A stretch of 64,000 bases of DNA from Escherichia coli (GTDB taxonomy: Bacteria; Pseudomonadota; Gammaproteobacteria; Enterobacterales; Enterobacteriaceae): the NCBI RefSeq assembly GCF_009931435.1, contig NZ_CP043414.1; one strand, given 5' to 3'. Both the position numbers and the translations under genes were made by a program. This document shows positions 60,200 to 64,000 of the stretch, piece by piece. The notes under the pieces were generated by a model. That model saw only the letters and a list, made by a program, of their open reading frames with translations. It ran no database searches and was not told the origin of the DNA. How positions within the stretch are numbered: the first letter of the stretch is position 1; every line of letters begins with the position of its first letter.

Positions 60200-60290
60200 G
60201 AAACATCCAGAGTTGAGACAGAATAAAAAGCAAAACGCCGCCAGCCGATCCGCAAGGATCTACTGAGCGGCGTTTTTGTCGTTCAAGAAA

Positions 60291-60848
60291 TCAGAACTGC
60301 ATCAGTTCTGCTTCTTTGTCTGCCAGCGCCGCTTCAATTTTCTTGATTGCAGCATCAGTCAGTTTCTGTACATCGTCCTGAGAACGGCGATCGTCGTCTT
60401 CGCTGATCTCTTTATCTTTCAACAGTGCTTTCACTTTGTCGTTCGCGTCACGACGCACGTTACGTACTGCAACACGCGCTTGTTCTGCTTCACCACGAAC
60501 GATTTTGGTCAGATCTTTACGACGTTCTTCCGTCAGCGGCGGCAGCGGAACACGGATGTCGCTACCCGCAGAGTTCGGGTTCAGGCCAAGATCGGACGCC
60601 ATAATCGCTTTTTCAACGGCCGGAGACATTGAACGATCAAACACGTTGATTTTCAGAGTACGGGAATCTTCTACCGTTACGCTTGCCAGCTGACGCAGCG
60701 GCGTCGGCGTGCCGTAATATTCCACGACAATGCCATCCAGCAGGCTGGGAGAAGCACGACCCGTGCGTATTTTGCTGATTTGGGTTTTGAACGCTTCTAC
60801 GCATTTATCCATGCGTACTTCAGCATCTTTTCTGATATCGCTAATCAC
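60291..60848 (-). CDS. frr: Ribosome recycling factor
   Basis: 185 aa, [21 protein letters not shown]...; matches Frr. Confidence 0.95.
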
Positions 60849-61139: not shown

Positions 61140-61865
61140 TTATTCCGTGATTAAAGTCCCTTCTTTTTCACCCATTACCACACGGCGCAGCGCACCCGGT
61201 TTGTTCATATTGAAAACACGAATCGGTAATTTATGGTCACGAGCCAGCGTGAAGGCCGCCAGGTCCATGACTTTCAGCTCTTTTTCCAGCACTTCGCTGT
61301 AAGTCAGTTGCTCGTACATCGTTGCGGTTGGATCTTTCGCCGGATCAGCAGTAAACACGCCGTCAACTTTGGTTGCTTTCAGCACCACATCGGCTTCAAT
61401 TTCGATACCACGCAGGCAAGCTGCAGAGTCGGTGGTAAAGAACGGGTTACCTGTACCGGCGGAGAGGATCACCACACGATTGTTGCGCAACAGGCTAATC
61501 GCTTCTGCCCAGCTGTAGCTGTCGCACACGCCATTCAATGGAATAGCGGACATCAGACGAGCGTTCACATAGGCGCGGTGCAGTGCATCACGCATTGCCA
61601 GGCCGTTCATTACGGTCGCCAGCATCCCCATGTGGTCGCCCACAACGCGGTTCATACCCGCTTTCGCCAGACCAGCGCCACGGAACAGGTTACCCCCACC
61701 AATCACCACACCAACCTGAATACCCAGTTCAACCAGTTCTTTGATTTCCTGAGCCATGCGATCCAGTATGCTTGCATCAATACCGAAGCCTTCCGTGCCC
61801 TGCAGAGCTTCGCCACTCAACTTAAGCAGAATGCGTTTATAGACGGGTTTTGCATTGGTAGCCAT
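61140..61865 (-). CDS. pyrH: Uridylate (UMP) kinase
   Basis: 241 aa, [23 protein letters not shown]...; matches PyrH. Confidence 0.95.
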
Positions 61866-61973: not shown

Positions 61974-62000
61974 CAAAAAGAAGCCGCCCTCAGGCGGCTC
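61974..62000 (-). terminator. Rho-independent terminator after tsf
   Basis: On the minus strand: AGCCGCC-TGAG-GGCGGCT hairpin followed by a T-run. Confidence 0.6.
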
Positions 62001-62011
62001 CTTTTCGATAA

Positions 62012-62863
62012 TTAAGACTGCTTGGACATCGCAGCAACTTCTGCTGCAAAGTCAGTCTCAACTTTCTCGATGCCTTCACCTACTTCGAAGCGGATGAAGC
62101 CAGTCACTTCAGCGTTATGCTCTTTCAGCAGCTGACCAACAGTTTTGCTTGGTTCCATAACGAACGGCTGACCGGTCAGAGAAACTTCGCCGGTGAATTT
62201 CTTCATGCGGCCTTCAACCATTTTCTCTGCGATTTCTTTCGGCTTACCAGACTGCATCGCGATATCCAGCTGAACCTGGTATTCTTTCTCTACCACTTCA
62301 GCGGAAACGTCTTCCGGTTTGATGAATTCTGGTTTGCTTGCAGCAACGTGCATAGCGATGTGTTTAACCAGCTCTTCGTCAGCGCCTTTAGCAGCAACCA
62401 GAACGCCGATACGCGCACCGTGCTGATAAGAACCCAGAACGTCGCCTTCCAGCGCAGCAACGCGGCGAATGTTGATGTTTTCACCGATTTTCGCTACCAG
62501 CGCAACACGTTCTTCTTCGAACTGTGCTTTCAGAACTTCAACGTCAGTGATTTTGCCAGCAACAGCTGCGTCCAGAACTTTGTCTGCGAACGCCTGGAAA
62601 CCAGCGTCTTTTGCAACGAAGTCAGTCTGGCAGTTAACTTCCAGAATGATGCCGTAGTTGCCGTCGATTTTGGTTTTGATCACGCCGTCAGCAGCAACGT
62701 TGCCTGCTTTTTTCGCTGCTTTGATAGCACCGGACTTACGCATGTTTTCGATTGCCAGCTCGATGTCGCCGTTAGCTTCAGTCAGTGCTTTTTTGCAATC
62801 CATCATGCCTGCGCCAGTACGCTCACGCAGCTCTTTTACCAGGGATGCGGTAATTTCAGCCAT
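62012..62863 (-). CDS. tsf: Translation elongation factor Ts
   Basis: 283 aa, [27 protein letters not shown]...; matches EF-Ts. Confidence 0.95.
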
Positions 62864-62920
62864 TCTAAAATCCTCGGAGATGTGATCTGCCCGGCGTTAA
62901 ACCGCACAGATATAAAAGTG

Positions 62921-62946
62921 AAAAAGGGGGCCATATGCAGGCCCCC
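62921..62946 (-). terminator. Intercistronic hairpin terminator/attenuator between rpsB and tsf
   Basis: On the minus strand: GGGGGCC-TGCATAT-GGCCCCC followed by T5, in the 258-nt rpsB-tsf spacer. Confidence 0.6.
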
Positions 62947-63121
62947 TAACCAAACGTGTACTACCTGGTCTATAAGGGCTCTCCCCCCTTCATATTTCGC
63001 GCCGCAGATGCGTTGTCTTCGCTCGCTCATCCCGGTCACTTACTGATGTAAGCTCCCGGGAATTCTCGAGCTTGCCGCCTTTCTGCAACTCGAACTATTT
63101 TGGGGGAGTTATCAAGCCTTA

Positions 63122-64000
<879 letters not shown>

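Follow-up and report, generated by a model that had tools for sequence, protein, structure and literature searches.

What does a strong hairpin followed by a T-tract do in the middle of an operon, between the genes encoding ribosomal protein S2 and EF-Ts? The hairpin lies in the window, the whole stretch of 64,000 nucleotides of Escherichia coli contig NZ_CP043414.1 that was analysed, at whose 3′ end the genes rpsB, tsf, pyrH and frr follow one another on the minus strand. Sequence and translation identified rpsB at 63847..63122 as the gene of ribosomal protein S2 (241 amino acids, 100% identical to annotated E. coli rpsB), followed on the same strand by tsf (EF-Ts, 283 amino acids, 62863..62012), pyrH (61865..61140) and frr (60848..60291). 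The t44/tff leader RNA of rpsB, the uS2 autoregulatory 5′UTR region, was recognised at 63875..63961 (minus strand) by Rfam family RF00127 with 84.6 bits (gathering score 44), and the K-12 annotation likewise places tff upstream of rpsB. The same family was found upstream of rpsB in all 11 scanned gammaproteobacterial loci whose sequence includes the rpsB 5′ leader. The reading frame of rpsB ends with a tandem stop, TAA at 63124..63122 and an in-frame TAA at 63121..63119, the second of which opens the rpsB-tsf spacer of 258 nt (62864..63121). At the other end of the spacer, the tsf Shine-Dalgarno sequence GAGGA was read from the sequence at 62871..62875 (minus strand), 7 nt 5′ of the ATG, and it is kept in every gammaproteobacterial spacer compared. 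Between the terminator and this ribosome-binding site, the minimum-energy and centroid structures of the spacer contain a small hairpin (62885..62911, minus strand) the sequence of which is partly conserved in Enterobacterales. The gene order itself is constant: a species-level genome collection yielded 82 loci, and in each of them rpsB stands directly 5′ of tsf.

The hairpin and its U-tract occupy 62921..62947 on the minus strand, with the stem-loop at 62947..62925 and the U-tract at 62925..62921, as defined by terminator scan, folding and a K-12 transcript end. Its stem (AGGGGGCC pairing with GGCCCCCT) consists of 8 pairs, 7 of them G-C, closed by a 7-nt loop, and five T residues stand directly 3′ of the stem, followed by CACTTTT. 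This 100% complementary inverted repeat was the first entry of the terminator scan and folds with −18.1 kcal/mol (z = −3.2), a stability reached by none of 200 shuffled sequences. Among the 146 hairpins with a T-tract and dG ≤ −10 that a scan of both strands of the window returned, it ranks 16th; in the same scan it is essentially as strong as the terminator that follows tsf (−17.6 and −17.7 kcal/mol, respectively). The latter, found by scan and folding at 62002..61974 (minus strand), has the form AGGAGCCGCC-TGAG-GGCGGCTTCT followed by a T-run and reaches −20.5 kcal/mol when its A/U extension is included. The strongest terminator-like hairpin of the window is a bidirectional one after frr (60232-60276; −29.3 kcal/mol on the minus and −25.9 kcal/mol on the plus strand). 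The original prediction, which had placed a GC-rich hairpin with T5 at 62921-62946 inside a 258-nt spacer and a second terminator at 61974-62000, was thus accurate to within 1-2 bases at both sites.

The arrangement is not peculiar to E. coli. A hairpin followed by a T-tract was detected in 51 of 76 bacterial rpsB-tsf spacers of at least 20 nt, compared with 9.6 in dinucleotide shuffles; at dG ≤ −12 these numbers were 47 of 76 and 2.7, respectively. The hairpins found outside Gammaproteobacteria are unrelated in sequence, and therefore the arrangement itself has apparently been selected. An origin of the hairpin by chance was ruled out by the shuffles, the window scan and the multi-locus spacer counts.

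Published work on E. coli K-12 can be applied to the locus in the window, because a 401-nt segment spanning the spacer was found again in 5,424 of the 5,426 complete E. coli genomes searched, in 5,317 of them with at least 99% identity; the matched segment always lies under rpsB and tsf. The K-12 locus itself is at least 99% identical and carries the same kind of long spacer, including the repeat described below. Hairpin, T-tract and the approximately 60 nt leading to the tsf ATG are the same in both strains except for position 62896, where K-12 has T and the window has C, and just two further small changes distinguish the spacers: an extra G in the G-run at 62983-62988 (minus strand), which makes the window spacer 258 nt and the K-12 spacer 257 nt long, and a C for T in GAAGACAACG at 63015 (minus strand) within the arm of the repeat. 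The C variant at 63015 is identical to the sequence of a probe designed for Shigella flexneri 301, which may point to Shigella or a near E. coli relative as the source of the window.

We take the hairpin and U-tract at 62947..62921 (minus strand) to be the Rho-independent attenuator already known from the rpsB-tsf operon, with a probability of about 0.9. RNA polymerase starting at the rpsB promoter, 5′ of the t44 leader, would release a fraction of the transcripts at the end of the U-tract as monocistronic tff-rpsB mRNA, and the remaining transcripts would enter tsf and either end at the second terminator or extend into pyrH-frr. The expected outcome is more message for S2 than for EF-Ts from a single promoter.

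This reading is in agreement with several independent studies of the K-12 locus. Northern experiments by Aseev et al., as they are cited in PMC2834685, described an attenuator before tsf with approximately one third read-through; the site is labelled 'att' in Figure 1 of PMC10931766, and a 2024 review draws attenuators in its map of the operon. SMRT-Cappable-seq (PMC6131387, Supplementary Data 1) lists transcripts that run from TSS 189712 to TTS 190800 and contain only tff and rpsB under both growth conditions. According to the first sheet of these data, 1,340 reads start at TSS 189712; 232 have their end at TTS 190800, 42 have it within 50 nt, and 906 continue beyond. With the K-12 tsf start at 190857 as reference, position 190800 corresponds to window position 62920, the C directly after T5, and K-12 TTS 191745 falls where the T-run of the tsf terminator ends. 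The SMRT-Cappable-seq authors tagged 190800 as 'novelTTS' because it is absent from RegulonDB. Nanopore sequencing also described stepwise termination of the rpsB-tsf unit (PMC8848933, PMC11347139). Apparent termination was approximately 23% and approximately 8% when calculated from long-read counts, the libraries of PMC6131387 being size-selected against short RNAs, versus about two thirds in the Northern experiments. In the second sheet of the SMRT-Cappable-seq data, columns 7 and 8 ('passing' and 'ending within 50 bp') look swapped in the row 189712-190800: it gives 16 reads passing 190800, yet 732 reads from TSS 189712 reach or pass the tsf terminator.

Read-through is not the only source of tsf transcripts, since minor TSSs of tsf-containing transcripts were reported at 190440, 190705 and 190794 (PMC6131387, Supplementary Data 2). 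The first of these positions lies in rpsB, the second (approximately 63016 in the window) in the arm of the repeat and the third (approximately 62926) in the 3′ arm of the terminator. Upstream of all three, sigma-70 motifs reach only 6-7 of 12 consensus matches, and a promoter scan of the spacer found none. In addition, the 2024 review reports that uS2 autorepression leads to less bicistronic mRNA and hence less EF-Ts. The original prediction that a terminator inside the operon implies attenuation between rpsB and tsf is supported, because SMRT-Cappable-seq places a 3′ end of the K-12 locus at the hairpin, at window position 62920, and Northern, SMRT-Cappable-seq and nanopore data on this locus show partial read-through. 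Its further claim that this attenuation sets the ratio of S2 to EF-Ts stands in a weaker form: attenuation contributes, and uS2 autorepression at the 5′UTR and the minor internal TSSs show that it is not the sole determinant. Presumably, the attenuator is a main one. As the attenuator of the rpsB-tsf operon has been documented since at least 2008, its confirmation here adds little by itself.

Internal terminators that act partially are also found in other operons, among them the rplL-rpoB attenuator, rpsU-dnaG T1 and rpsO-pnp t1. Like the rpsB-tsf hairpin, they are intrinsic terminators placed between an abundantly expressed ribosomal-protein gene and a downstream gene needed in smaller amounts, and a fixed read-through fraction sets the stoichiometry. 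They share no sequence kinship with it, and rpsO-pnp differs further in being processed by RNase III. We know of no ERIC element in any of the three. The rpsO terminator t1 is described in PMC2834685.

Three tandem hairpins, of which the terminator is the third, form a conserved module in the rpsB 3′UTR across several gammaproteobacterial orders. The 5′ arm of hairpin 1 (AAUAAGGC, 63116..63123, minus strand; 'region 1'), delineated by independent folds of orthologues, overlaps the rpsB stop codons, and its 3′ arm (GCCCUUAU, 62972..62979, minus strand; 'region 2') is also complementary to the 5′ arm of the terminator. Hairpin 2, seen in minimum-energy folds, is formed by GACCAGG-N9-UUUGGUU at 62948..62970 (minus strand). 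The terminator motif, (C)AGGGGCC-loop-GGCCCCU(G)-UUU, is common to Enterobacterales, Vibrionaceae, Aeromonas, Shewanella, Rheinheimera and Pasteurellaceae; hairpins 1 and 2 precede it in Enterobacterales, Aeromonas, Shewanella and a MAG, and partly in Pasteurellaceae. The consensus of hairpin 1 consists of UAAUAAGG, with the rpsB stop codons in this 5′ arm, a variable stem and CCUUAU, and that of hairpin 2 is AACCA...UGGUU. When orthologous spacers were folded independently, exactly three hairpins were obtained in 10 of 17 and the terminator in all 17.

A MAFFT alignment of gammaproteobacterial spacers misplaced the terminator arms, and independent folds and a covariance-model alignment were used instead. 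The covariance model, seeded with six Enterobacterales, matched Superficieibacter, Shewanella, Aeromonas and Rodentibacter with E values of approximately 1e-3 to 1e-4 and others more weakly. All matches fell into the rpsB-tsf spacer, with the exception of two spurious weak ones (one antisense in locus L015, the other at L031:2361-2427; E 0.19-0.35). The module occupies 62921-63123 (minus strand) in the window and L001:378-459, L003:1364-1445, L015:1399-1473 and L019:1332-1408 in other loci. Helix 1 (hairpin 1) is 98.5% paired with one compensatory change from G-C to A-U, helix 3 (hairpin 2) is 88% paired across 11 taxa, and helix 4 (terminator) is 94% paired with 4 pairs changed on both sides. 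In the alignment fitted to the covariance model, a procedure that favours the structure, 93.5% of the cells are paired (24-68% in slid controls), five pairs are changed on both sides, a number reached in 4 of 500 shuffles, and the covariation score exceeds that of all 500 shuffles. A search of Rfam found no family for the three-hairpin module on its own, and no description of it was found in the literature examined; published conservation work concerns the 5′UTR operator of rpsB.

The spacer of the window contains an additional element, as its palindromic half is an ERIC/IRU repeat. This imperfect palindrome of approximately 128 nt, beginning with CTCCCCC and ending with GGGGGGAG, extends over 62981..63108 (minus strand) with its core at 63024..63067. 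ERIC1R and ERIC2 are the standard primers of ERIC-PCR and appear as a pair in 233 papers. Matches to these two primers lie back to back at 63046-63067 (plus strand) and 63024-63045 (minus strand), each with 19 of 22 positions identical and 0 expected by chance. A search for the joined 44-nt ERIC core with at most 3 mismatches gave no match; each half alone matches with 3 mismatches. E. coli genomes hold copies of the palindrome at 2-18 places, with a median of 11. The repeat folds with −62 kcal/mol on the sense strand (z = −8.8) compared with −47 kcal/mol on the antisense strand, and the long imperfect palindrome 5′ of the terminator is the reason why the whole spacer (−107.4 kcal/mol, z = −6.6) folds far better than its shuffles. 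ERIC elements are defined as imperfect palindromes of approximately 127 bp with a conserved core, which are intergenic, co-transcribed, multicopy and polymorphic for presence or absence (PMC2229807, PMC3184786). The copy in the window shares length, palindromic structure, core, intergenic location, co-transcription, multiple copies and polymorphism with these elements and differs in its precise position, in the apex of a conserved hairpin, right after a stop codon and 5′ of an attenuator. A weak Rfam match to the Vibrio RNA AS5 (RF02818; 24 bits, E = 0.06) covers 62986-63109 (minus strand), and this family may itself have been modelled on an ERIC-like Vibrio repeat.

Comparison of alleles revealed how the long spacer arose. 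Alignment of the window, K-12-like sequences and short-allele E. coli sequences delimited a segment of 134 nt, mostly ERIC (62982..63115, minus strand), which is specific to the long allele. In the short allele, the spacer measures 134 nt and the 10-nt apex of hairpin 1, ACGCTCGTAC, takes the place of 63115..62982. The insert is present in approximately 4,094 E. coli genomes and absent from approximately 1,330 of 5,424. Spacers of other Enterobacterales (116-149 nt) have nearly the same short sequence and no ERIC element; because they share this form, the short spacer is ancestral and the 258-nt spacer derived. The left end of the ERIC element is preceded by TA (TTGATA directly before ACTCCCCC) and its right end has no matching TA; compared with the empty site, the 10-nt ancestral apex has been replaced, unlike in a simple insertion, and a clean duplication of a TA target is not visible. 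Long and short alleles agree throughout the terminator and the sequence 3′ of it, except for C/T at 62896. In the window, as in most E. coli and Shigella, arrival of the ERIC element in the apex of hairpin 1 doubled the length of the spacer without changing the terminator. The unusual length of the spacer is due only to the insertion of the element just 5′ of the terminator, and as the element sits exactly in the apex, it extends hairpin 1 and does not disrupt the module. Searching the literature for ERIC in combination with rpsB or tsf gave no relevant paper.

The layout of the module raises the question whether termination responds to translation of rpsB. Region 2 (GCCCUUA) could pair either with region 1 or with the 5′ arm of the terminator (UAGGGGC, region 3). 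A ribosome at the rpsB stop codon would mask region 1, so that a 2:3 antiterminator stacked on hairpin 2 forms and polymerase reads through; when uS2 represses translation of rpsB, the 1:2 helix would form, the terminator would fold and transcription of tsf would fall. Such a scheme might share the order 1:2, 2:3 and 3:4 and the decisive role of ribosome position with the leader-peptide attenuators of trp and pyrBI. It would differ from them in that the ribosome acting as sensor finishes translation of a full-length upstream gene and not of a leader peptide, and the support for its 2:3 helix is weak. The stop codons lie in the 5′ arm of hairpin 1 in Enterobacterales, Shewanella and a MAG, as the scheme demands, but outside hairpin 1 in Rodentibacter and Haemophilus. 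The 2:3 helix is the best hairpin in two species, and in nascent-RNA folds region 2 captured the terminator 5′ arm in 13 of 13 module sequences, with or without a ribosome mask. However, when the upstream sequence was shuffled, the advantage in capture energy proved to be only about 1-2 SD; even in the better cases, 2 to 70 of 300 shuffles equalled the native sequence, and in Rodentibacter, the MAG, Vibrio and Rheinheimera capture did not exceed chance. Outside the homologous module, 2:3 pairing better than chance was not seen, the arms are almost invariant and leave no covariation to count for this helix, and the terminator is present in every minimum-energy fold of the full-length sequence. 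The position of the ERIC element in the apex would preserve the switch. The lower amount of bicistronic mRNA that the review describes under uS2 repression fits as well, but is equally explained by Rho-dependent polarity or decay. The folds thus weakly support a ribosome-sensing antiterminator as structurally possible, and we consider it unlikely to govern termination here. The antiterminator model was not adopted, as the differences between nascent-RNA folds and shuffles were not significant enough.

A small RNA has also been assigned to the site of the hairpin. Rfam family RF02798, 'Chromosome-encoded Shigella sRNA A' or CssrA (Peng et al. 2011, PMC3071730), matches 62926..63036 (minus strand) over its full length with 131.1 bits (gathering score 93), and the match comprises the right arm of the ERIC element, the small hairpin, hairpin 2 and the terminator stem. 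The short E. coli allele scores only 53.6 bits, and other Enterobacterales score 29-42 bits. As the score falls without ERIC, the CssrA family can be described as the ERIC right arm joined to hairpin 2 and the terminator stem. In PMC3071730, a Northern band of approximately 100-110 nt was detected in S. flexneri and independent initiation was assumed; the 3′ end of CssrA was set at the predicted terminator and its 5′ end at the terminator position minus the band size. Table 1 of that study names map/rpsB as the neighbouring genes. Its supplement, which lists tff at 180656-180791, the candidate region at 181544-181784 and the terminator at 181738, is offset from K-12 coordinates by 9056 as calculated from tff, so that the terminator falls on the final C of the attenuator hairpin, K-12 190794. 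A position of CssrA between map and rpsB is ruled out by these coordinates, which place it in the rpsB-tsf spacer; the label in Table 1 is an error. The locus is accordingly the same as that of CssrA in S. flexneri 301, with a full-length match. We read the published CssrA as a composite of one half of an ERIC element with the rpsB attenuator, and its independent gene as putative.

The hairpin might then serve mainly as the terminator of an independent sRNA gene with its own promoter in the spacer, operon attenuation being incidental. The RF02798 score above threshold, the band in S. flexneri and the SMRT-Cappable-seq TSS 190705 inside the spacer argue for such a gene. Against it stand the facts that the ends of the sRNA were deduced from terminator and band size and never mapped, that no good sigma-70 motif lies upstream, that its 5′ half is an ERIC arm missing in one quarter of E. 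coli and in other genera, that the isolated CssrA span is no more stable than its shuffles (z = −0.44), and that the terminator long predates the ERIC insertion. The Northern probe cSNC66, whose sequence in the supplement of PMC3071730 matches the window exactly, binds at 63011..63032 (plus strand, antisense to the minus-strand RNA), inside the ERIC element, and in most genomes a 42-nt extension of its site recurs at one further, related place, which also weakens the assignment of the band. Initiation of CssrA directly at TSS 190705 (window position 63016) was rejected, as an RNA from there would barely overlap the probe and would escape detection. The position of the probe requires the RNA to start upstream of approximately 63020, near the ERIC apex. 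Taken together, we judge it very unlikely that the hairpin belongs mainly to an independent sRNA gene. Most simply, the CssrA RNA of approximately 100-110 nt would be the 3′-terminal piece of the terminated rpsB mRNA, reaching from the ERIC apex to the terminator and probably made by processing. The report that transcribed ERIC elements expose RNase E sites (PMC2229807) fits CssrA as an mRNA fragment.

Processing might also be invoked for the 3′ ends as a whole, with full read-through, a cut downstream and exonucleases that stall at a hairpin acting as an mRNA stabiliser only. Stable 3′ hairpins are in general barriers to exonucleases, and long-read data do not separate termination from trimming. 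Although ERIC elements in transcripts have, in addition, been linked to RNase E cleavage (PMC2229807), this explanation is hardly credible, since the 3′ end coincides precisely with the end of a canonical U-tract, hairpin and U-tract and not the hairpin alone are conserved across phyla, the hairpin is as strong as the accepted tsf terminator of the operon, and the specialist literature names the site an attenuator.

As an attenuator, the hairpin between rpsB and tsf represents textbook-level operon design. Of modest practical value are three further results, on CssrA, on the rpsB 3′UTR and on the polymorphic insert. For the annotation of small RNAs in Shigella and E. coli it matters that CssrA looks composite, with a mislabelled locus and a probe placed in a repeat. 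The rpsB 3′UTR contains a structured module that extends across several gammaproteobacterial orders and is covered by no Rfam family. If the ribosome-sensing switch were true, transcription of tsf would be coupled directly to translation of rpsB and thereby to uS2 autorepression, and the polymorphic ERIC insertion would be a natural perturbation of that switch. The presence or absence of the 134-nt insert after the stop codon of an essential gene provides a ready-made test of the effect of an ERIC element on the fate of an mRNA.
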